From sequence record OL451225.1: DNA of 64,000 nt; one strand, 5' to 3'. Positions within the stretch are counted from its first letter, which is position 1. Each line of letters starts with the position of its first letter. The stretch is from Escherichia phage P896. The translations under genes and the position numbers were made by a program. Under the pieces are notes generated by a model. The model saw nothing but the letters and a program-made list of their open reading frames with translations, ran no database searches and was not told the DNA's origin. This document shows, one piece after another, positions 2,255 through 59,444 of the stretch.

Positions 2255-3195
2255 TGTTTACTTTACAAGAATTTCAAACACAAGCGATTAATATCGACTT
2301 GCAGAGGAATAACCTTTTTAGTGTGGTCTTCGCGACCGCACCTTCCTCTAAATCTCAGAATCTTCTGGACCAGTTTGGTGGCGCATTATTCAGCAACCTT
2401 CCTGTTAACTCAGATTGGTTCGGATTAACACAAGGTGACTTAACTCAAGGGATAACAACTCTTGTTACTGCCGGGACACAAAAGCTTATTCGTAAATCAG
2501 GGATAAGCAAATATCTTATCGGGGCAATGAGTAACCGTGTTGTGCAATCATTATTAGGTGAATTTGAGGTTGGTACTTACCTGCTTGATTTCTTTAATAT
2601 GGCTTATCCAACGGCTGGTCTATTAGTTCACTCTGTTAAGCTTCCGGATAACACATTGAACTACGAAATGGACCTTAACCATAATGCGCCAAATATCAAG
2701 ATAACAGGGAGAGAATATTCTCCGTTGGTATTGAGTTTTAGAATGGATTCAGAGGCGGGGAACTTCAGAGCATTTAACGATTGGGTTAACTCTGTACAGG
2801 ACCCAGTTACCCAGCTAAGGGCTTTGCCTGAAGACGTTGAAGCTGATATTCAGGTTAACCTTCATTCGCGTAATGGGTTACCGCATACGGTTGTTATGTT
2901 AACTGGTTGTGTTCCTGTGAGTGTATCAGCGCCTGAATTGAGCTATGAAGGGGATAATCAGATAGCTACATTTGATGTTACTTTTGCTTATCGTGTTATG
3001 TCAACTGGTGCGGTGGGAAGAACTGCAGCATTAGAATGGTTGGAAGATAAGGTTATTAAAGGTGTATCTGGTATTAGTTCAGATAACAACTTGAACTCAG
3101 AAGTTGCCAAATTGAGTCGCTTGTCTGGTGCTCAATCTGGATTAACAAGTCTATACAATACGTTCACTGGTTCTGGGAGTCAACGTATATTATAA
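2254..3195 (+). CDS. 54: Baseplate tail-tube initiator gp54
   Basis: 313 aa versus about 320 aa in T4; follows 48; ends at a strong terminator. Confidence 0.8.
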   Translation: MFTLQEFQTQAINIDLQRNNLFSVVFATAPSSKSQNLLDQFGGALFSNLPVNSDWFGLTQGDLTQGITTLVTAGTQKLIRKSGISKYLIGAMSNRVVQSLLGEFEVGTYLLDFFNMAYPTAGLLVHSVKLPDNTLNYEMDLNHNAPNIKITGREYSPLVLSFRMDSEAGNFRAFNDWVNSVQDPVTQLRALPEDVEADIQVNLHSRNGLPHTVVMLTGCVPVSVSAPELSYEGDNQIATFDVTFAYRVMSTGAVGRTAALEWLEDKVIKGVSGISSDNNLNSEVAKLSRLSGAQSGLTSLYNTFTGSGSQRIL

Positions 3196-3576: not shown

Positions 3577-5637
3577 CTACGAAAGGAATTTAGGAGGAAT
3601 AGCTTCCAAATTAATACAACTAGCAAGAATACCAAGACCTTGATTGACTTTCTTCGTTACCCCAGAGGATGCAAACGATGCAAAGTCAACAGATTCTGCT
3701 GGCTCTTCTGTTTCCTCGCCCTGATAAACGACAAGCTCACCAGTTTCCATCAACACATCACCATCATAGATAACTGCATTTTCATCCAGTTGGTCCGTAG
3801 TCTGGATATCAGCTTCCAGCATTTTGACGTTCGCGTTTCCTTGATACGAAGCATCAGTAATTTTGGTAATCTTAACTACAGTCCCACGAGGAAGAATAAC
3901 TTCCTGCTCGGACGGGTTGCTTGACAATTCCCCAGGAACAATTACGTTAATTAAGTCCGCCCCAGAAATTTTCCAACCAACATGCATCATTACGTGGTCG
4001 CGGCGTGCATCCGGCATATCTGGTAAAACAATTTCGTCATCAGCCTGGAAAGATGTCCCATCACGATAGTCCTGATGAACTGCAGCCATAGCAACGTTCG
4101 CCACCCAGCCACCAAAGATAATCGGTTTAAACGACGTTGATACATAGTTCCTGAAATAAAATAATTTAGATTTCTTAATTTTATCAAATGTAGGAACGTT
4201 TAAATATTGACCACGCCAAAGAGTTGTATTAGGCGGCAACTTATGTCCAATTTCAAAGGCCGAATCCAATTCCTTAATTGTTTCGACAACTCTGTCTAGA
4301 TTTAGGAATTCAGCTTCTTCTTCATAATATTTGCCCATCAAATAATTATTAATATCGGCATAGTTTGCTCCACAATAATCTGCAATTGCTTCTCGCTGGC
4401 CATAATGGAAACGGTTGTCAGTATACCCTGCTGTGAAATTAAGAGTATTTTCTGATGCTTCTTCGGCAAAGTCTTTAACTGCAACACGAATGGCGCTTGT
4501 GTATTCTTTTTCCCAGAGCGAGGCTGCATAAGTGGCTGCATCCAGGTTAGGAGGAGCATCATTCATTTTTCTTTCGATAAATGCGGCTTTGCGAAGGTTA
4601 AGAATCTCTGCGCATGATTCGGCAAAAATCTGCATCTGCTTCATACTACCAACCGGAGCACGTTTAAGTTCACGATGCATACGGTTAAAAATTGGGTCAG
4701 AGTCTTCAACACGAATTTCTTCTTTCCAAACACCATTTGCTCGCATAGCCTCATCTGCTGCACGCATACGAGCCATAGTATTCGTTTCAGAAGGTCGAAC
4801 AAAAATTTCCAGTTCTTCATAATCATCGATAAGTTCTGCCGTAGCCGGTCGACTAAACTTAGCAGCTTCTGCATCAATTTCGTCCCAACCGTCTGGTACG
4901 GAATCACTTGGAGCGTACTGGGCTTGTGCAATAGCTCGGCGACTGATTTTAGTTTTCTGGGCAACAGCAGCATCGGTCTTTTTGTTTGCTGCGTCAATCA
5001 GAACTTCGGCTGCGATTTCTTGTTTGGAGACTTGTGCGCCTGTATCTTTATTAGTGAATACATCGCCGACTTTAGTTTCAACTTTTTGATATTTCTCAGG
5101 GACCGGTGGCATACCATCAACCGAAAGCAGGTCAACACCCTTTTTGTACATAATTACATAAGCGTTCTTTTTACCGAGGCCGGAAGCATTCGGAAGAACA
5201 TGATAACGCCCGCTGGTTTTCATTTGAATCAGTCGATTCATAATACGAATAACAGCTTGGTCTTGTCCTTTCATCTTTTTGGATGGGAAACGGAACAAGA
5301 CTACATCAGGTTTGCCTAGTTTAATGCTTTCCCAGACTGTAACAAAAATCAGGTTAATCGCATCAAGAGGTTTTTCACCTAGACCACCCTTCAGAGGAAT
5401 AGCATGGCCATGTGAAGTCCCGGATAACAGGAATACCTCGGCAATTGCATCGCCACGTTTATATTGTTTAACTGTTTCTTTGCCCGTGAATTGCATCAAA
5501 CGGGCCATAAGAGAATTGGTCCCAGGAACACCGAATTGCCAAACCTGCGGGACCTTGTATTTTGGATTCATATTAATGACAGGATAACCGAAGGCTTCGA
5601 TATATTTGTCAAAGAGTTCATTTAATTGTTCAGACAT
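3577..5637 (-). CDS. alt: Alt-family mono-ADP-ribosyltransferase (head-packaged), copy 1
   Basis: 686 aa (T4 Alt is 682 aa); R/STS/E-x-E motifs (WRGQ..., YVSTSF, EQEVILPRGT); conserved N-terminal region shared with the adjacent paralog. Confidence 0.8.
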   Translation of the reverse strand: MSEQLNELFDKYIEAFGYPVINMNPKYKVPQVWQFGVPGTNSLMARLMQFTGKETVKQYKRGDAIAEVFLLSGTSHGHAIPLKGGLGEKPLDAINLIFVTVWESIKLGKPDVVLFRFPSKKMKGQDQAVIRIMNRLIQMKTSGRYHVLPNASGLGKKNAYVIMYKKGVDLLSVDGMPPVPEKYQKVETKVGDVFTNKDTGAQVSKQEIAAEVLIDAANKKTDAAVAQKTKISRRAIAQAQYAPSDSVPDGWDEIDAEAAKFSRPATAELIDDYEELEIFVRPSETNTMARMRAADEAMRANGVWKEEIRVEDSDPIFNRMHRELKRAPVGSMKQMQIFAESCAEILNLRKAAFIERKMNDAPPNLDAATYAASLWEKEYTSAIRVAVKDFAEEASENTLNFTAGYTDNRFHYGQREAIADYCGANYADINNYLMGKYYEEEAEFLNLDRVVETIKELDSAFEIGHKLPPNTTLWRGQYLNVPTFDKIKKSKLFYFRNYVSTSFKPIIFGGWVANVAMAAVHQDYRDGTSFQADDEIVLPDMPDARRDHVMMHVGWKISGADLINVIVPGELSSNPSEQEVILPRGTVVKITKITDASYQGNANVKMLEADIQTTDQLDENAVIYDGDVLMETGELVVYQGEETEEPAESVDFASFASSGVTKKVNQGLGILASCINLEAIPPKFLS

Positions 5638-5646
5638 TTTTAACCC

Positions 5647-7521
5647 TTAATTGAGAAGGTGTACAAGTTTTTCCATAGACAAATCATAAGAGATTCTGTC
5701 ATATTTTTTCAAAAGCGAATTTGATTCGTCTATCTGGTCATTTTCTAAGATAGAGCATTCAACGAGAATGTATTTACCCATCGAACCCATCATGCCAGCT
5801 GTAGCACCATAGACTTTATCAATCTTAAGCATTGTTCCACGTGGAAGAATAACTTCGGTTTCAACGGACCAGTTTGCCAGGTCACCAGGAATAACTACCT
5901 TGATATTTTCTGCACCTTTGATAATCATACCAATCTTGATTGTAGGTTTCGCCGAACCAGTTGCACTTTTAATAGTTGCATCGATTGCCCCATCATCGAT
6001 ATCACTCGATAATGCATTTGGGTCAAGGTTCGCAGCGGTGTGGCCCATACGACCGAAAATATTTGGCGCCAGAGATGTACTCGCAAACATAGGAAGATAC
6101 ATCGTTTTATTTTTGATGGAATTAATTGCCATATCGGTTGGCATGACTTGAGCACGGTAGATGATAGTTCCTTTTGGAAGCTTAACACCGTTTTCAAATA
6201 CTTTATCCATATCGGAAATCATTTTGATTTCGCTTTCTTTTGCGTCAGCTTTCCCTAGCAGGAAATTATTGATTGCAGTATATTTTCCGCGAGTATATGC
6301 CTTAATTGCTTCGGCCTGGTCTTCAGTTATTTCAGGGTTGTCGGAGATATGAAATAATGGTTGGATGGCCTTGGTGTAAATTTCATCTGCGATAATACGA
6401 ATAGCTTCTTTAGTCTTATCTTCGCGCGCCCAGGTCCCCACAATGGAGTCGTCAAGCAACATATCAGCAACTCTGCGCAATGTATCAACAGGATTCTTTG
6501 AGGCCCGCAGGACGTTCGAAAACTCACTTATTTTGTGTTCCATGCCAACTTCTTTAAGAGCATTAAACACATCCATGGCTACACGAGTTTTTGTCTTATC
6601 TTCACCAACACCACCTTGTGCAACTAAATCAAAATAGTCTGCATACTCATCACCCGCACGGTCGATTACTTTTATTGAAGCTTTAGCTATCTGACTTTCT
6701 CTGGCATCATCTGCTGAATGCACTGCGCTACTGGTCGAGAGTTTTGTATAAATCTCTTTGTGCTCTGGTGAGAATTTAGCAAGGCCAGTTGGTTCGTTCC
6801 CCGAATACAATGCGTTAATAGCTGCGCGTTTAGAAAACTTGGTTTTAACAACAACTGCCTGGTCTGTACGTTTTTCTTCAACCTTTGCAATAGAGGCCGC
6901 AATAGCTTCATTCTTGGTAACAGTTTCGCCGGTGGCTTTGTCTACATAAACATCACCGACTTTCGATTCCACTTTTGTGTACAATTCGGTATTGATGCCA
7001 GGAATTCCGGCGATAGATTCAATTGGTTTGGATTTACGATAAATCAATACGTAAGTATGTTTACCCGTGTACTGATACATATCATCCAGAACTTTGAACT
7101 GACCGCCGGCACGGGCCATAATAAGCCGAGCAAGAACACGCTGAATAGTTCGTTCTTGTCCCTTCATTTTGCGGGTCGGGAAGCGGAACATAATTGCATC
7201 CATTTTCATCAGTTTTACTTGTTCGTAAACTACATCAAAAATGGATTTAATTGCTCCAATCGGGTTATCACCAAGACCACCTTTAAGAATAGCTGGAGTA
7301 CCGTTTGAATTTAATGACATCAAAATAACGTGTGCATACTTATCGCCAGTTTTGACCTGTTTAATAGCATCGCCTTCGGATGCGTAAGACACCATACGAG
7401 CAATAAGATTATCATTCCCCGGGACCTGGATATTCCAAATCTGTGGAACTTTTGACTTTGAAAGGTTAATGGCCGGGATATTAGATTCCCCTTCAAAAAC
7501 CTCTGACAATAATTCGGTCAT
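5647..7521 (-). CDS. Alt-family mono-ADP-ribosyltransferase paralog, copy 2
   Basis: 624 aa; N-terminal region homologous to copy 1 (KVPQ.W..VPG, LKGGLG, FRFP..KMKGQ, KVE.KVGDV); R/STS/E motifs (YRAQ, FASTSL, ETEVILPRGT). Confidence 0.8.
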   Translation of the reverse strand: MTELLSEVFEGESNIPAINLSKSKVPQIWNIQVPGNDNLIARMVSYASEGDAIKQVKTGDKYAHVILMSLNSNGTPAILKGGLGDNPIGAIKSIFDVVYEQVKLMKMDAIMFRFPTRKMKGQERTIQRVLARLIMARAGGQFKVLDDMYQYTGKHTYVLIYRKSKPIESIAGIPGINTELYTKVESKVGDVYVDKATGETVTKNEAIAASIAKVEEKRTDQAVVVKTKFSKRAAINALYSGNEPTGLAKFSPEHKEIYTKLSTSSAVHSADDARESQIAKASIKVIDRAGDEYADYFDLVAQGGVGEDKTKTRVAMDVFNALKEVGMEHKISEFSNVLRASKNPVDTLRRVADMLLDDSIVGTWAREDKTKEAIRIIADEIYTKAIQPLFHISDNPEITEDQAEAIKAYTRGKYTAINNFLLGKADAKESEIKMISDMDKVFENGVKLPKGTIIYRAQVMPTDMAINSIKNKTMYLPMFASTSLAPNIFGRMGHTAANLDPNALSSDIDDGAIDATIKSATGSAKPTIKIGMIIKGAENIKVVIPGDLANWSVETEVILPRGTMLKIDKVYGATAGMMGSMGKYILVECSILENDQIDESNSLLKKYDRISYDLSMEKLVHLLN

Positions 7522-32608: not shown

Positions 32609-35600
32609 ATGGCCGATATTTTAAAACCAGCATTCAGAGCAACATCCGGTCTCGATGCTGCTGGTGAGAAAGTCATTAATGTCGCGAAAGCTGATTACTC
32701 AGTTTTATCAGACGGCGTTAACGTAGATTTCTTTATAGAAGAAAACACAGTTCAACAATATGATGCGACACGAGGATACAAAAAGAACTTTGCAGTTATT
32801 AACGATAACCGTATTTGGGTTGCTCAACGTGATATCGCGGCTCCGGCAGGGACATTTACCCCTCAGTATTGGTTAGCAACCCGTACTGACCCGAAATGGG
32901 AAACTGTTGCATCTCCAACTCGTCAGCTTAGCTCGGGTGAATTTATCGCGGTCGACTCAGCTGCAAGCTTTACCACATTTACATTGCCTCCGAACCCGAC
33001 TGATGGTGATACCATCGTTATTAAAGATATCGGTGGCAATACCGGTTATAATGAAATCAAAGTTCAATCGAGCAATGTACCTGGTCAAGGTAACCAAAAG
33101 ATTGTTCGTTTCGGTAACCAATTTACTGAAATATTAATCAGTAAGCCGTTCTCTTACAACATGCTTATTTTCTCCAACCGCTTATGGCAGTTCTGGGAAG
33201 CAGGTAACGAAGAACGCGGAATAAGAATTGAACCAAGCTCTGGCAAATATCGAACTCAAGCATCAGATTTTATTATGCGTCATTATACGACTGCAGAAAA
33301 AATTACATTTATTCTTCCTAAGTATGCTAACCAAGGTGATATTATTAAATCTGTTGATATAGATGGATTAGGCCCATTATATCACCTGGATGTTGAAACG
33401 TTTGACGAGTCAAGTTCTCTGGGTAAACAAGGCCAACACAGTATGGAATTCCGTACTACTGGTGATGGTTTCTTCGTTTATAATGCCACCGAAAAATTGT
33501 GGGTGACCTGGGACGGTGATAATAAAACTCGTTTGCGTGTAATTCGTGACAATGTGAAATTGTTACCAAACGAAAGTATCATCGTGTTCGGTAATGATAA
33601 CAACACTGCGCAGACAATTAACATCGACCTTCCGACGGGTGTTCGTCCAGGTGATGTTGTTAAGATTGCTCTGAACTATCTCCGTAAGGCACAGACTGTT
33701 AATATTAAAGCTTCGGGTACTGATAAAATTGCATCTTCTGTTCAGTTGCTTCAGTTCCCGAAACGTTCGGAATATCCGCCGGATACTGAATGGGTACTGG
33801 TTGACTCTTTGACTTTCAATGGTAACATAAGTTATACTCCGGTTATTGAATTAAGTTACATGGAAGATACAGATAAAGGAATTAACTATTGGGTTGTTGC
33901 TCAGAACGTTCCGACTGTTGAGCGTGTTGACTCGAAGGATGATTTGACCCGTGCTCGCCTGGGTGTTATTGCATTGGCTAACCAGGCTCAGGCTAACGTT
34001 GACCATGAAAATAACCCTGAAAAAGAATTAGCAATTACTCCGCAGACTTTAGCTAACCGTGTGGCTACTGAATCACGTCGTGGTATTGCACGAATTGCTA
34101 ACACTGCCCAGGTAAACCAGGATACGACTTTTGCTTTCCAGGATGATATTATTATCTCTCCGAAAAAGTTAAACGAACGTACAGCTACTGAAACAAGACG
34201 TGGGCTTGCAGAAATCGCCACACAGCAAGAAACTGATGCAGGCACAGATGATACTACCATCATCACTCCACGTAAGCTACAAGCTCGTCAGGGCTCAGAA
34301 AGCCTATCTGGTATCGTTAAGTATGTTCCTACTACCGGGACTACTCCAGCAGCAAGCCGTATAACTGTTGGGACCAACGTTTATAATAAAAATACAACTA
34401 CTCTGGTAATTTCTCCGAAAGCTTTGGACCAATATAAAGCTGACCAGAACAACCAAGGTGCTGTATATTTGGCCACACAGTCAGAAGTTAACGCGGGGGC
34501 AACAAATACAGGATTCAGTAACTCGGTCGTGACTCCGGAAACATTAGGTGCACGCAGAGCAACAGATTCAAACCATGGTTTAATCGAGATTGCAACTCAG
34601 GCTGAAACTAATGCCGGAACCGATTATACCAGAGCTGTGACTCCTAAAACGTTGAATGACCGTAAAGCATCAGAATCATTATCCGGCATAGCCGAGATTG
34701 CTACGCAATCAGAATTTGATACTGGCACGGATGATACTCGTATCGCAACGCCATTAAAAATTAAAACTAGACTTAATAATACTGCTCGTACTTCTGTTAT
34801 TGCAGCAAGTGGTTTAGTAGAAACAGGGACGCTCTGGGACCATTATACGCTGAATATTCTTGAAGCAAATGAGACTCAACGTGGCACTGCAAGACTGGCT
34901 ACTCAACTTGAAGTTAATACCGGTACTGACGATAAAACAATCGTTACTCCGCTTAAGTTGATGTCGAAAAAAGCCACAGAAAGTACAGAAGGTATTGTTC
35001 GCATCGCTACTCGTGCAGAAACTATCACAGGAACAAGTTCGATTCTTGCTGTTTCTCCGGTTAGTCTGAAATGGATTGCACAGTCCGAACCAACATGGGC
35101 AGCAACCACGACGACCCGCGGTTTTGCTAAGATGTCCGAAGGCGCAATTACTTTTGTCGGTAATGCAACTGCAGGTTCGACCCAGGCTCTTGACCTGTAC
35201 GAGAAAAATAGCTATGCTATCTCTCCGTACGAGTTAAACAAAACTCTTGGTAACTTCCTGCCGCGGCTGGCTAAAGCAGCAGACTCGGATAAACTGGATA
35301 ACCTGGATAGCACGCAGTTTATTCGTCGTGATGTAGCACAAGATATTAATGCTAATATGACATTCAAACAGCCTGTTAGAATTGAAAGTACTTTAACAGT
35401 TACCGGCGTAGTTAATTTGAGTGGTTCTGTTACTTCAAATAATACTACATTAACCGGTGCTACTGCAATCAATAGCAATTCTACTGTAGGTGCTTTGAAT
35501 TACATTGAGTTCACTTCAGAATCTCAAGGTGCGGGTACTTGGAACTCTCAACATGATAGTAATGTTAAAGCTCCTGTATTTTTAAATATAACTACTCCGT

Positions 35601-55137: not shown

Positions 55138-55145
55138 TATTTATA
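55138..55145 (-). promoter_or_regulatory. T4 late promoter (TATAAATA) overlapping the gene 39 stop codon
   Basis: Exact TATAAATA on the minus strand, about 37 nt upstream of the ATG at 55100. Confidence 0.45.
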
Positions 55146-56973
55146 GCGTCGCATTCATCCAATCTTTACGCTGTTGGGAATCTTTACCGAATAGCATTTC
55201 GAACAGTTCTTTCCAGTTATCAGGCAATTGAACAACTTCGAATACCGGCTCGAGCAATACGCGTTTGTACTCAGAATCTTCCAAAGAACCAAGCCCCTTG
55301 ATATATCGGATGGTGTGCTTCGGAAGTTTATCCTTAGCTTCTTCATAGTCAGGAAGAGAATAGAACCATTCTTGTTTGTCTTTGAGCTGCGCAATAATAA
55401 CAGGAGTTTTCACAAAGCGAATTCGTCCTTCATGGAACAGCTCTGGCCAGTTACTGAAAAACGCCAATAACGATGGATAGATACTACCGACACCATCCAC
55501 ATCCGCATCTGTCATGATAGCAATGTTTCGGTAATTCATATTCTTGGCCGGTTGTCCAATCGTTAACCCAGTAATTGCACACACATCAAAGGCTTCAGCG
55601 TTCTTCATAACTTCAACAGCTTTCAGACCCCATGTGTTTTTAAACTTACCACGTAATGGATAAGCACCTTGCAATTCACGGTCGCGAACCTTAATAAATG
55701 GCCCTGTTGCAGAATCACCTTCGGTCAGGAACAGAGTCGTTTCCAACTTATCATTGCCCCATTCGTTGGCTTTGATATGCTTTTGTACCTTGGCCTTTGA
55801 AGCTTTCTTATTTGCTTTAGTCTCTGCTGCTTTCTCTGCAGCCAATTTACGGGCTAATGCAGCTTCAACAATCGGCATAATCAGCGGTTCATTTTTCAGA
55901 ATAGCTTGTGCGATTTTCTTGGCATCAATCTTGATGTGATTTCGAATTTCACCGGCCGGAGAAGTCAATCGCTCCTTAGTCTGGGAATCAAATCGCATAT
56001 TGCTCATATCGCGGATGAACATAAGCATGGTGAGGCATTCTTTAACTCGTGCCTTGGTCACCTCAATGCCTTTATATTTGCGCTTAATCGCTGGTTGAAG
56101 ATGTTCGCAGATATCATCCATAACACATTCAACGTGGTGCCCGCCATTCTTTGTATGAATGTTGTTGACATAAGTCAACTGACGAAAACCATCCGGGCTA
56201 GTCGTAAAGGCCATCGATACCGTATCAGTTTCCTGGATAACAACTTCGGTTCCAAATTGCTTGGAGAACTTCTTGAAGTTGCCATCAACCTTTTTACCAT
56301 TAAAGGTAAACTGAATATCCGGATAAACAACTGCAAGAGTCTGTAGACGGTCCAATGTAATATCCAGATAAATCTGGGACAGACTATTTTCTTCAAAGTG
56401 ACTAAAGTCTGGAATAAATATAACAGTCGTACCTTTACCCTTTGATTTCTTAGTCGACCAACATTTGTTTTCCATACCGTTGGAGCAGTTAACAGTGATT
56501 TCATTTGCACCATCAGCGGTAATCCCGGTGAACAATACAGAGAAAATATTAGTCAGAGAAGACCCGACGCCATTCATCCCGCCAGTTTTACGTTCAGCAT
56601 CATCGCCAAAGTTGCCACCTGCTTTTGGAATAGTCCATGCTGCAACAGGGCCAGGGATTTGTTCACCGTTTTGGTCTGTAACCATTGCTTGTGGAATACC
56701 ACGGCCATTATCAGAAACCGAAATCTGATTATCTTTAATTTGGACATCAATTTTATTGGCAAATTTAAAACTGGTGCGAATTGCTTCATCAACAGAGTTA
56801 TCGATAATTTCATCAATCAGTTTTACAATACCAGGAACATAGCTTACGGACTTATATTCACCAAACAAGAATCGCTCATGCGCTTCATTTGAACTGGAAC
56901 CAATATACATCCCGGAACGTTTTTTGATATGCTCGACGTCCGAGAGTACTTTAATTTCATTATTAATCATCAT
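55141..56973 (-). CDS. 39: DNA topoisomerase II large subunit (GyrB-like), single uninterrupted ORF covering the gene 39 + gene 60 equivalent
   Basis: 610 aa continuous ORF with GHKL ATPase motifs (...DNGRGIP..., GGMNGVGSS...) and a Toprim region; no separate gene 60 and no mobA between it and rIIA. Confidence 0.85.
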   Translation of the reverse strand: MMINNEIKVLSDVEHIKKRSGMYIGSSSNEAHERFLFGEYKSVSYVPGIVKLIDEIIDNSVDEAIRTSFKFANKIDVQIKDNQISVSDNGRGIPQAMVTDQNGEQIPGPVAAWTIPKAGGNFGDDAERKTGGMNGVGSSLTNIFSVLFTGITADGANEITVNCSNGMENKCWSTKKSKGKGTTVIFIPDFSHFEENSLSQIYLDITLDRLQTLAVVYPDIQFTFNGKKVDGNFKKFSKQFGTEVVIQETDTVSMAFTTSPDGFRQLTYVNNIHTKNGGHHVECVMDDICEHLQPAIKRKYKGIEVTKARVKECLTMLMFIRDMSNMRFDSQTKERLTSPAGEIRNHIKIDAKKIAQAILKNEPLIMPIVEAALARKLAAEKAAETKANKKASKAKVQKHIKANEWGNDKLETTLFLTEGDSATGPFIKVRDRELQGAYPLRGKFKNTWGLKAVEVMKNAEAFDVCAITGLTIGQPAKNMNYRNIAIMTDADVDGVGSIYPSLLAFFSNWPELFHEGRIRFVKTPVIIAQLKDKQEWFYSLPDYEEAKDKLPKHTIRYIKGLGSLEDSEYKRVLLEPVFEVVQLPDNWKELFEMLFGKDSQQRKDWMNATL

Positions 56974-56995
56974 CTTTCCTCTTGTGTATGGAGGT

Positions 56996-57022
56996 ATTAT
57001 AAGTCACATATTTTAAAGCAAA
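56996..57022 (-). promoter_or_regulatory. MotA-dependent middle promoter candidate for gene 39
   Basis: Minus strand tTTGCTTTA (MotA box), 12 nt, then TATAAT, about 25 nt upstream of the gene 39 ATG. Confidence 0.45.
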
Positions 57023-57040
57023 AAGGCCCGAAGGCCTTAT
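57019..57040 (-). terminator. Intrinsic terminator after the lipoprotein gene
   Basis: Minus-strand AAGGCC-UUCG-GGCCUU followed by a U-run; overlaps the upstream stop codon. Confidence 0.5.
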
Positions 57041-57297
57041 TCAAATCGGATGGTACTGTTCTTGAACAATAATCCAGAACAAACAGTTCCTTCAACTTTC
57101 TTACCAGTTGGCCCCACGGCTGTAAAACCTGTGTGTTGAAAATCATCTTTACCACAAGAGAACCAGTTATATCCGGTGATTTGGATTTGCTCATAGCCGT
57201 TTGCATCTAATACCCGAATGGCATTATCTGCATCAGTACAACCTGCCAATGAAACCGCCAGCACCAGCGCGGCAATAGAACGATTAATGTATTTCAT
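57037..57297 (-). CDS. Small secreted lipoprotein (86 aa)
   Basis: Signal peptide with lipobox LAGC (MKYINRSIAALVLAVSLAGCTD...); two further Cys residues in the mature part. Confidence 0.55.
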   Translation of the reverse strand: MKYINRSIAALVLAVSLAGCTDADNAIRVLDANGYEQIQITGYNWFSCGKDDFQHTGFTAVGPTGKKVEGTVCSGLLFKNSTIRFE

Positions 57298-57303
57298 AAT
57301 TTC

Positions 57304-57480
57304 TCACTTAGTCAGCAGGTCATAGAACCCGCCGTTAACATGTTTAGGAGCTGAAACTAACCGAACAGCCAGCCGATGGCAATCAGGACAAACATCATTA
57401 TCTCTTTCAGAGATTTTCTTGATTTTTTCGTATTCTTTCGCGCAGTCTTCGGATTGGCATTTGTAGTCATAAAGTGGCAT
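57304..57480 (-). CDS. Zinc-ribbon protein (58 aa, FmdB-like CxxxxC...CPxC)
   Basis: Hand-translated: MPLYDYKCQSEDCAKEYEKIKKISERDNDVCPDCHRLAVRLVSAPKHVNGGFYDLLTK. Confidence 0.5.
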   Translation of the reverse strand: MPLYDYKCQSEDCAKEYEKIKKISERDNDVCPDCHRLAVRLVSAPKHVNGGFYDLLTK

Positions 57481-57481
57481 G

Positions 57482-57856
57482 TTATTCCTTAAAGTGTGCT
57501 TTCAACATCTGGTAAACGGTCCAGGCTTCAGAGTTATTAGAAATGGTGATTTTAGTCAAAGGGAATTCGCTTGGTTCAAATGCTTCATCAGCGTCTTCGC
57601 ATTCGTCTTCAGTATCGTCATCTTTTTCTTCTTCAAAGAAACGACGCTCATCTTCCTTTATGAATATTCTCTCCATTCCACCGGTCGAAAATTCTATCCG
57701 ATATACATCACCGCCTTCAATTCCGACTGGTCTAAATCCTTCACCATTGATTATAGCATCAGCTATATTATCATTATCAGAGCATAACAAACGAAATCTG
57801 CTTTCAGCAACATTATCTTTAAAATAATACCATTTATCAGTTTCAAATTTCAACAT
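57482..57856 (-). CDS. Hypothetical acidic protein (start at internal ATG)
   Basis: AAGGAG Shine-Dalgarno before MLKFETDKWYY...; acidic C-terminal stretch EEEKDDDTEDECEDADE. Confidence 0.45.
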   Translation of the reverse strand: MLKFETDKWYYFKDNVAESRFRLLCSDNDNIADAIINGEGFRPVGIEGGDVYRIEFSTGGMERIFIKEDERRFFEEEKDDDTEDECEDADEAFEPSEFPLTKITISNNSEAWTVYQMLKAHFKE

Positions 57857-58073
57857 GATAAGTCTCCTTCCAAAAATCTGTACCATCTTCTGATTCTTCG
57901 CGGAACAGTGCATAGCTAGGTAATTCCGCACCTTCATACGCATACACATAAATGATATCAGTGGTGCAAAGAAATTCATTGATGTTTTTCTTCACAATCA
58001 CTTTATCACTTTCAGCGGTTTCCCAGAACTCTTCAGCGGTCAGGGAAGTGGTCACACAATCTTCATTAAACAT
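57843..58073 (-). CDS. Hypothetical protein
   Basis: 76-aa acidic ORF. Confidence 0.45.
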   Translation of the reverse strand: MFNEDCVTTSLTAEEFWETAESDKVIVKKNINEFLCTTDIIYVYAYEGAELPSYALFREESEDGTDFWKETYHVEI

Positions 58074-58120: not shown

Positions 58121-58612
58121 TTAGGCAAAATGAATATCAGCATACTCAACGATAAAGCTTTCAGGAACAACCTTAAAGGTTCCAAGGAACACAATATTAT
58201 ACAATTTAACCCCTTCTTCAACCCACTGGTCGGTGATGTAACCGGACATACTAGTGGTTTCATAAGTCGGACCATACATGCAATTGTATTCAAACGGTTT
58301 AGGTGAAACAAAAAAGACACCTTTGCCCAATTTCCATTTAAAATCAACCCCAACATGAGACTGGTCAATGGTTTCAACGTCTTCGGCCACAGGAGCGATG
58401 TACCCAGTAAATTCGGTTGATTCCAGGAATTTAGGATGCACATAAGCCAATTGAGTTTCAGTCTGACCATGTTTAGGAATAATACGCACTTTAACTTCTT
58501 TAATTCCGCCTACTAAATTAGTGCGAAGACTCACAACCTCAACAAAACGACCAGCCGCTTTAGAACGAGATTCTTTAGAAACACGTACAATATCACCAGC
58601 TTCAACTTTCAT
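58121..58612 (-). CDS. Hypothetical protein (MotB-sized, 163 aa), paralog of the next gene
   Basis: C-terminus YITDQWVEEGVKLYNIVFLGTFKVVPESFIVE is homologous to the C-terminus of 58689..59444; size and position resemble T4 motB. Confidence 0.45.
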   Translation of the reverse strand: MKVEAGDIVRVSKESRSKAAGRFVEVVSLRTNLVGGIKEVKVRIIPKHGQTETQLAYVHPKFLESTEFTGYIAPVAEDVETIDQSHVGVDFKWKLGKGVFFVSPKPFEYNCMYGPTYETTSMSGYITDQWVEEGVKLYNIVFLGTFKVVPESFIVEYADIHFA

Positions 58613-58688: not shown

Positions 58689-59444
58689 TTAATTAAAAAT
58701 TTCAACAACCATGGAACGTGGTACAACAGTAAATTCACCAGCATGGACAACGTTCAGGAGTTCAACACCATCTTCAATCCACTGGTCTGTTACCCAACCA
58801 CAAATGGAACTATTAAATGGACGTTTGATTTGAACTGGTTTGCACAACAAGTCAATAGGGTCACCCAGTTCGCTAACTTCTTTCAGCAGTACAGATTCAC
58901 GCGGATAAAGGATAGCTTCAAGATTGTCACCTGATTCATTGACTGCAGTAAATTCAAAGATGCTTTGGTGATTGTGGTACTTAACTGTTTTAACGGTAAA
59001 TGGAGTAAATCCAAAAATACCTTTTAGTACACGCCAACCAGCATGCATTGCAACGGTCTTTCCAAACTGACTGGCATCTTCAATAAGCTGATAGGTTTTA
59101 CCAACTTTGATAGGAGTTTCTTCAACTTCTTTGAAGAGTTCAATCTCAGCTTCATAAACCATAATTTTTTCTACTTCATTTGTATCAAGGCGACGTGCAT
59201 GTAGAATATATGCTTTATCAAACCAGTTACTTTTTACAAAAGTTTCAACAATAAATTCACCTTCGCCTAAAGCATCAGTCAGAGTATTATACCCAGAAAC
59301 CATAGCTGCATTTTGAATAATAGGTTCAATCAGTTGATAAGTTTTGTTAATTTCAATAGTCATATTTTGTTTCTCAAGTTTTAATGGTTTAATTGGGCGA
59401 ACATACATACTTACAACATCAAAGTCAATAAATTCTGGTTTCAT
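58689..59444 (-). CDS. Hypothetical protein with internal duplication, paralog of 58121..58612
   Basis: 251 aa; two internal KTYQLIE-containing repeats; C-terminus WVTDQWIEDGVELLNVVHAGEFTVVPRSMVVE. Confidence 0.5.
   Translation of the reverse strand: MKPEFIDFDVVSMYVRPIKPLKLEKQNMTIEINKTYQLIEPIIQNAAMVSGYNTLTDALGEGEFIVETFVKSNWFDKAYILHARRLDTNEVEKIMVYEAEIELFKEVEETPIKVGKTYQLIEDASQFGKTVAMHAGWRVLKGIFGFTPFTVKTVKYHNHQSIFEFTAVNESGDNLEAILYPRESVLLKEVSELGDPIDLLCKPVQIKRPFNSSICGWVTDQWIEDGVELLNVVHAGEFTVVPRSMVVEIFN

Follow-up and report, generated by a model that had tools for sequence, protein, structure and literature searches.

Neighbouring genes for an NwgI orthologue and a predicted envelope lipoprotein upstream of gene 39 in a T-even phage

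As shown in Table 1, two small genes, 39.2 and 39.1, lie between goF and gene 39 in the window, that is, the whole stretch of 64,000 nucleotides analysed, and the strand, position and length that an earlier note on this DNA had given for both open reading frames agree with the present analysis. The genes are tightly packed, with 1 nt between the stop of goF and the start of 39.2 and 6 nt between the stop of 39.2 and the start of 39.1. The 1-kb stretch that carries 39.2 and 39.1 is 92–97% identical to SP18-, JS98- and TH41-type T-even phages, whose records name these two small genes gp39.2 and gp39.1, and the order motB–cef–goF–39.2–39.1–39 is found in SP18, JS98/JS10 and T4-type phages at 85–97% nucleotide identity; the source of the locus is an SP18/JS98-like T-even phage. 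Gene 39 is present in its unsplit form, spanning T4 gp39 and gp60, and carries neither the mobA/60.1 insertion nor the gene-60 bypass element. A search of the interval with Rfam gave no RNA element. Upstream, the mechanical reading frame of goF is 165 aa long, starts at 57979 (57482–57979, minus strand) and overlaps cef, while relatives annotate the 124-aa form that starts at 57856. Further upstream, the C-terminus of MotB.1 resembles that of MotB (about 50% identity over MotB residues 119–156) in several relatives, the window regions concerned being 58689–59444 and 58121–58612 on the minus strand, which points to a domain common to both proteins or to a partial duplication.

Table 1. Position and basis of the features at the 39.2–39.1 locus (window coordinates).
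Feature	Position	Strand	Description	Basis
39.2 (nwgI orthologue)	57304..57480	-	58 aa, FmdB-type zinc ribbon	ORF
39.1	57037..57297	-	86 aa, predicted prolipoprotein	ORF
Gene 39, downstream neighbour	55141..56973	-	Topoisomerase II large subunit, 610 aa	ORF
goF, upstream neighbour	57482..57856	-	124 aa	phrog_622, E 1.9e-29, and SP18 annotation
Shine-Dalgarno AAGGA of 39.2	57490-57486	-	Overlaps goF 3' end	
Predicted signal peptide of Gp39.1	57241-57297	-	Residues 1-19	Lipobox rule
Cys20 codon of Gp39.1	57238-57240	-	Predicted lipidation site	Lipobox LAGC
Intrinsic terminator	57023..57038	-	AAGGCC-UUCG-GGCCUU and U-run	-9.4 kcal/mol
MotA-dependent middle-type promoter of gene 39	56996..57022	-		Motif match

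Both genes are already known and annotated, and 39.1 is a widespread phage lipoprotein. The comparison with T4 39.1 and 39.2 that had been suggested earlier identifies the genes of the window as their orthologues. Absence or frameshifting of the two reading frames in relatives had been named as a point against them; across 16–18 T-even relatives, both are intact and free of frameshifts. In the same relatives, the median pairwise dN/dS was 0.071 for 39.1 and 0.056 for 39.2, and both genes are under strong purifying selection. The clustered protein database adds 10 homologues of 39.2 and 99 of 39.1, and with tblastn, 970 and 1068 phage records, respectively, are matched. Given these homologue counts, the low dN/dS values and the lack of frameshifts, 39.1 and 39.2 are not chance reading frames.

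The terminator and the MotA-type promoter previously pointed out near the two genes are both confirmed, and T4 carries the same pair at the equivalent place. The terminator hairpin begins within the stop codon of 39.1, and the promoter consists of a perfect MotA box, TTTGCTTTA, at 57022–57014, a 12-nt spacer and the -10 element TATAAT at 57001–56996. The pattern TGCTTYA-N11-13-TATAAT has 2 matches in the window, where shuffling gives an expectation of 0.03; the sole other perfect MotA box followed by 11–13 nt and TATAAT in the window is at 34842–34867 (minus strand). With this arrangement, 39.2 and 39.1 would share a transcript upstream of the terminator, which in turn lies in front of the gene 39 middle promoter; the position of 39.1 ahead of that promoter points to early or middle expression.

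The zinc ribbon that had been recognised in the 58-aa protein is supported by two profiles, as Gp39.2 lies above the curated cut-offs of both Pfam Zn_ribbon_8 (PF09723; 43.9 bits against a gathering score of 34.4, E 2.3e-11) and TIGR02605 (45.4 bits against 31.3). Its cysteines C8, C13, C31 and C34 are invariant across 16 relatives. Gp39.2 thus exceeds both thresholds of the FmdB/CxxC_CxxC_SSSS family, but has C-x4-C in place of C-x2-C in its first knuckle. The T4 protein was matched in the protein database (P0104) with an E-value of 3.4e-19, and 54 of the 58 residues (93%) are identical over the full length to Gp39.2 of the resequenced T4 (MT984581). The two proteins share the length of 58 aa, the four cysteines and the position between goF and 39.1/39, and differ by the four substitutions E11K, N28T, T57K and K58G (window to T4).

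The function of 39.2 is already known and was published in 2012; T4 Gp39.2 was reportedly given the name NwgI by Ang & Georgopoulos in that year (Genetics 190:989). According to two citing papers (PMC4396842, PMC5153855), T4 NwgI shifts host GroEL towards its open, GroES-binding state, and a deletion of T4 39.2 allows normal growth on ordinary K-12 strains and leads to a complete block on specific groEL mutant hosts. In the same literature summaries, T4 39.2 works alone from a plasmid, and the literature on the action of NwgI on GroEL covers T4 and RB69. From the 93% identity to the T4 protein, we infer a GroEL role for Gp39.2 of the window. Its product would be a cytoplasmic 58-aa four-cysteine zinc ribbon acting on GroEL as T4 NwgI does; by pushing GroEL towards an open state that accepts the co-chaperonin, it may keep the folding of GroEL-dependent phage proteins going on suboptimal hosts.

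In the earlier note, the zinc ribbon was instead suggested as a possible regulator binding nucleic acids or RNA polymerase, an idea that does not hold against the T4 protein being reported as a GroEL modulator. An FmdB-like transcriptional or nucleic-acid-binding regulator would be in keeping with the family label found in PHROGs (phrog_1076) and RefSeq, with the frequent binding of nucleic acids or RNA polymerase by zinc ribbons, and with the position of 39.2 among the modulators of transcription and RNA motB, cef and goF. However, the label "FmdB-like transcriptional regulator" comes from the family name and not from experiment: the name implies regulation of gene expression, while the experimental work on T4 Gp39.2, the sole such work on this protein, assigns GroEL modulation. 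Gp39.2 also has, within its 58 aa, no additional domain. A regulator is therefore improbable, and the database label, which is widespread, is misleading for Gp39.2.

Gp39.1 has the features of a bacterial-type prolipoprotein. The criteria used were a basic n-region, an uncharged h-region, a lipobox of the form [LVI][ASTVI][GAS]C, and the cysteine at position 15–35. The N-terminus, MKYINRSIAALVLAVSLAGC, has Lys2 and Arg6 in its n-region and no charge in residues 10–15; read directly, the stretch SIAALVLAVS is followed by L-A-G-C20, giving the motif S-L-A-G-C with Thr at +2, and PROSITE PS00013 is matched. The lipobox LAGC assigned earlier to the 86-aa protein therefore satisfies the PROSITE rule at the level of sequence, and Pfam LPAM_1 gives a sub-threshold match (E 0.05). 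According to these sequence rules, Gp39.1 would leave the cytoplasm through Sec, receive its lipid at Cys20 and lose its signal peptide to signal peptidase II, so that a mature domain of 67 aa with the conserved pair Cys48/Cys73 remains. In Enterobacteria, under the +2 rule, lipoproteins lacking the Asp Lol-avoidance signal are sorted by Lol to the outer membrane, and by this rule Gp39.1 is predicted to be located in the inner leaflet of the outer membrane. The T4 gp39.1 of phrog_902 shares with it the length of 86 aa, about 77% identity, the position of the lipobox, the two cysteines, the C-terminal GTVCSG..FK..TIRF and a place immediately before the terminator and promoter of gene 39, and differs in nothing of substance.

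These features are widely kept in the family, for which the phrog_902 profile gives a full-length match to Gp39.1 (residues 1–86, E 2.3e-36). In the 248-member alignment, the lipobox cysteine is aligned in 230 members and the strict PROSITE core pattern is present in 193; the +2 residue is Thr in 199 and Ser in 28 (227 together), with no Asp among the residues tallied. The remaining 18 of the 248 (7%) have no lipobox cysteine and retain a hydrophobic N-terminus, which argues that the domain is always extracytoplasmic; such members would be located in the inner membrane or be soluble, a poor fit to a strictly outer-membrane target. Cys48 and Cys73 are both present in 241/248 members. Residues 74 and 81 (codons 57078–57076 and 57057–57055) are Cys/Cys in 24/248 members and are never Cys singly, and this covariation indicates a likely second disulfide in a subfamily. 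The covariation of the cysteines argues for disulfides and hence for an oxidising compartment and an extracytoplasmic domain.

The T4 reference sequence gives a different picture of the two genes. In NC_000866/AF158101, a 45-aa 39.2 and a 65-aa 39.1 without a signal peptide are annotated, and about 14 of the 481 positions that it has in 39.2–39.1 disagree with every resequenced T4 compared (MT984581, HM137666, KJ477684-6 and others; stretches compared: 3380–3860 of L002, T4 NC_000866, and 301–800 of L025, T4 MT984581). In the resequenced T4 genomes, Gp39.2 has 58 aa and Gp39.1 has 86 aa, the latter with the lipobox LIGC, and the Georgopoulos essay likewise describes the T4 39.2 product as a 58-amino-acid peptide. 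Since the resequenced genomes disagree with it, the reference carries old sequencing errors at 39.2–39.1; a loss of the lipoprotein in T4 was considered and rejected, the frameshifts being errors of the reference. These errors hide the signal peptide of 39.1 and have spread into annotation and into the guides of a genome-wide screen. In the T4 CRISPRi-ART study (PMC11879866 supplement), 39.1 and 39.2 are both scored "Not Fit", i.e., with no fitness effect in the laboratory. However, the guides for 39.1 were built on the erroneous reference start (T4 coordinates 5565–5615) and contain erroneous bases, as seen in supplementary files 8, 15 and 25 (PMC11879866), which makes the "Not Fit" score weak for this gene. 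In the same table (PMC11879866), T4p007 is entered as a PHROG "singleton" owing to the truncation. In a T2 record (PV648363, L026), an antisense reading frame is annotated across the 39.1 locus at 388–774, and 39.1 itself is omitted.

A deeper view of Gp39.1 is offered by structure prediction, which had been proposed as a check and which yielded a confident model of a folded alpha/beta domain. In the AlphaFold model of the mature domain (pLDDT 89.2, pTM 0.77), one helix is followed by four antiparallel strands; the helix would pack on the four-stranded antiparallel sheet, and the Cys48–Cys73 disulfide would staple the loop C-x-x-D-D-x-x-H-T-G-F. The covariation of Cys74 and Cys81 agrees with the beta3–beta4 pairing of this model. 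In 211 of 230 members, the lipid-bearing cysteine is spaced 10 residues from Leu30, and this constancy implies a tether of 2–3 residues between the lipid anchor and the helix, so that the domain would have to lie against the membrane surface. The C-terminal "TIRF" was considered as a mimic of the outer-membrane beta-signal and rejected, since it does not fit the pattern and, in the model, the strand belongs to the sheet of the domain itself.

Similarity searches connect this domain with uncharacterised proteins only. Against Pfam and NCBIfam, Gp39.1 gave nothing significant beyond weak signal-peptide matches; the PADLOC defence models contain no family for Gp39.1 or Gp39.2 at E ≤ 1; and a profile search of PDB sequences with Gp39.1 returned no match. 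Foldseek searches of the PDB with the full-length and the mature-domain model gave best E-values of 0.91 and 2.3, and in BFVD the family members matched, all uncharacterised, belong to Enterobacter phage PG7, Agrobacterium phage Atu_ph07, Edwardsiella phage pEt-SU and Klebsiella phage N1M2. In the best 150 of about 2300 representatives, no domain fusion of 39.1 was seen, and a single tandem duplicate, P0129. A search of the literature for gp39.1, or for a T-even lipoprotein, brought up no functional study.

The 39.1 family is broad and is apparently restricted to phages, as judged from the sequences searched. The profile search gave about 2300 (~2330) cluster representatives at 50% identity, and homologues are present in phages of Klebsiella, Enterobacter, Serratia, Burkholderia, Stenotrophomonas and Agrobacterium. 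The 39.1 product ranks among the small accessory proteins that are conserved most widely in T4-type and other large phages. No match to 39.1 was found in 5,426 complete E. coli genomes, and in 185,579 species-representative genomes, searched with narrow peptide patterns, only two MAG contigs matched, both with phage-like genes. On one of these contigs (L029), three further small predicted lipoproteins (LVGC, FMGC and STGC) lie a few kb downstream of the homologue, at 6037–7446. Among plasmids, there are only two carriers, both 117-kb non-mobilizable, phage-plasmid-like rhizobial "plasmids", with the homologues at 4950–5207 of L030 (Sinorhizobium pLM21S1) and at 81335–81535 of Shinella NZ_CP132310; the homologue of pLM21S1 adjoins ribonucleotide reductase, glutaredoxin and dut genes, and in view of these neighbours, pLM21S1 is probably a phage-plasmid. 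Guilt by association was uninformative for 39.1, the neighbours of the distant homologues being unrelated small reading frames.

There are several ways in which a protein of this kind could act. Taken as a whole, the locus is best explained as an NwgI orthologue together with an envelope-acting prolipoprotein, encoded by two unrelated genes, an explanation that we regard as probable. From early infection, Gp39.1 may bind the periplasmic face of a broadly conserved component of the outer membrane or envelope, rather than the phage's own variable receptor, and such binding would condition or protect the envelope of the infected cell, for instance, against secondary attack; 39.1 would be dispensable in laboratory culture. 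The receptors of T2, T4 and T6 are FadL/OmpF, OmpC and Tsx, respectively. The mature Gp39.1 proteins of these three phages are identical save for one residue in T6, and because they are nearly identical despite the different receptors, a receptor-specific Gp39.1 is unlikely; together with a host range that reaches Burkholderia, Stenotrophomonas and Agrobacterium, this near-identity favours a conserved envelope target. A conserved target combined with a conditioning or protective role is nevertheless put forward as a possibility only, and the odds are against it. [quoted passage not shown] If this were true, the target would be conserved from Enterobacteria to Burkholderia and Agrobacterium, Gp39.1 would be a generic envelope effector (in exclusion, anti-defence or envelope stabilisation), and its mechanism would be distinct from that of the receptor-specific Llp and Cor.

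The comparison with Llp is instructive, since Gp39.1 could also act in superinfection exclusion, which the earlier note had named among the typical roles of small T-even phage lipoproteins; it would bind the phage's own outer-membrane receptor from the periplasmic side and close it allosterically to further phage. It has been reported that Llp of T5 is a small outer-membrane lipoprotein that faces the periplasm, has one disulfide and is made early, and that the receptor FhuA is closed allosterically once Llp has bound to its periplasmic face (PMC9586334). The general build of Gp39.1 resembles that of Llp: like Llp and Cor of T1/phi80, it is by prediction a small phage-encoded outer-membrane lipoprotein facing the periplasm, and it shares with Llp the predicted single disulfide and early expression; a tether as short as that of Gp39.1 would suit a protein that touches an outer-membrane protein from the periplasmic side. 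However, neither Llp nor Cor is similar to Gp39.1 in sequence, PHROG or fold. The PHROG search at E ≤ 0.01 gives phrog_902 alone, and Foldseek, run with the confident model, finds no match in the PDB, a library in which the published FhuA–Llp structure is presumably contained. In addition, 39.1 is not linked to adhesin genes, lying instead in the early region beside gene 39, it is conserved irrespective of the receptor, as the near-identical T2, T4 and T6 proteins illustrate, and its homologues occur in phages of very different hosts. Exclusion of the Llp/Cor type is thus quite unlikely.

The main rival to an envelope-conditioning role is that Gp39.1 inhibits a periplasmic or envelope enzyme (tail-lysozyme, lytic transglycosylase or protease) through its disulfide-stapled loop, perhaps in the manner of Ivy, MliC/PliC, ecotin and T4 Spackle, by analogy. 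The loop C48-x-x-D-D-x-x-H-T-G-F, which exceeds every other exposed element in conservation and which the near-invariant Cys48–Cys73 pair pins in place, would be well suited to such a role, a soluble or wall-associated target would account for the members without an anchor, and a conserved enzyme as target would agree with the wide range of hosts. However, the resemblance of the loop is an analogy only, no sequence or fold similarity to known inhibitor families was found in Pfam/NCBIfam, the PDB or Foldseek, and, with a tether of 2–3 residues, most members would stay at the surface of the membrane, a long way from the wall. Inhibition of an enzyme is accordingly held to be unlikely, and binding to a conserved envelope component is still preferred.

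A further role open to a small phage-encoded lipoprotein of the outer membrane, as Gp39.1 is predicted to be, is that of a spanin-like protein in lysis. T4-type phages, however, already own a spanin pair, pseT.3/pseT.2, encoded elsewhere, and 39.1 lies in the early region with 39.2 and gene 39 as neighbours and with no overlapping or adjacent gene for an inner-membrane spanin; moreover, its product is modelled as a compact alpha/beta domain and not as a proline-rich extended chain. A lysis function is therefore extremely improbable. T4 Spackle (gp61.3) and Imm are early envelope proteins that shield the infected cell from secondary phage attack, a role of the kind proposed here for Gp39.1. The likeness is one of role only: Spackle and Imm are unrelated to Gp39.1, neither is a lipoprotein, and no similarity was detected. 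The study of Gp39.1 could reveal a new envelope-level interaction between phage and host.

The earlier note had treated the lipoprotein and the zinc ribbon as a pair, and the two genes do adjoin each other, with 6 nt between them and one transcript in common upstream of the terminator, in an arrangement that recurs in many T-even phages. However, one product is cytoplasmic and the other is predicted to be exported, T2 and T6 have an RB69ORF005c-like reading frame between 39.2 and 39.1, the gap between the genes reaches about 390 nt in three loci (L012–L014), and all nine distant 39.1 loci examined have no 39.2, goF or gene 39 nearby; the plasmid-borne activity of T4 39.2 alone, from the literature summaries mentioned above, points in the same direction. 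A single functional module is thus very improbable, and the claimed pair breaks up: 39.1 and 39.2 are unrelated, each conserved in its own right, and as early/middle accessory genes they are neighbours by synteny only. The RB69ORF005c-like reading frame, of 105–132 aa, is also found between 39.1 and gene 39 in SP18 and the closest relatives of the window; the loci recorded for it are 2640–3038 (L001), 26–343 (T2 PV648363, L026) and 24–395 (L027). It is missing from the corresponding interval of the window, 56974–57036, and looks like a small gene that has been gained or lost around 39.1.
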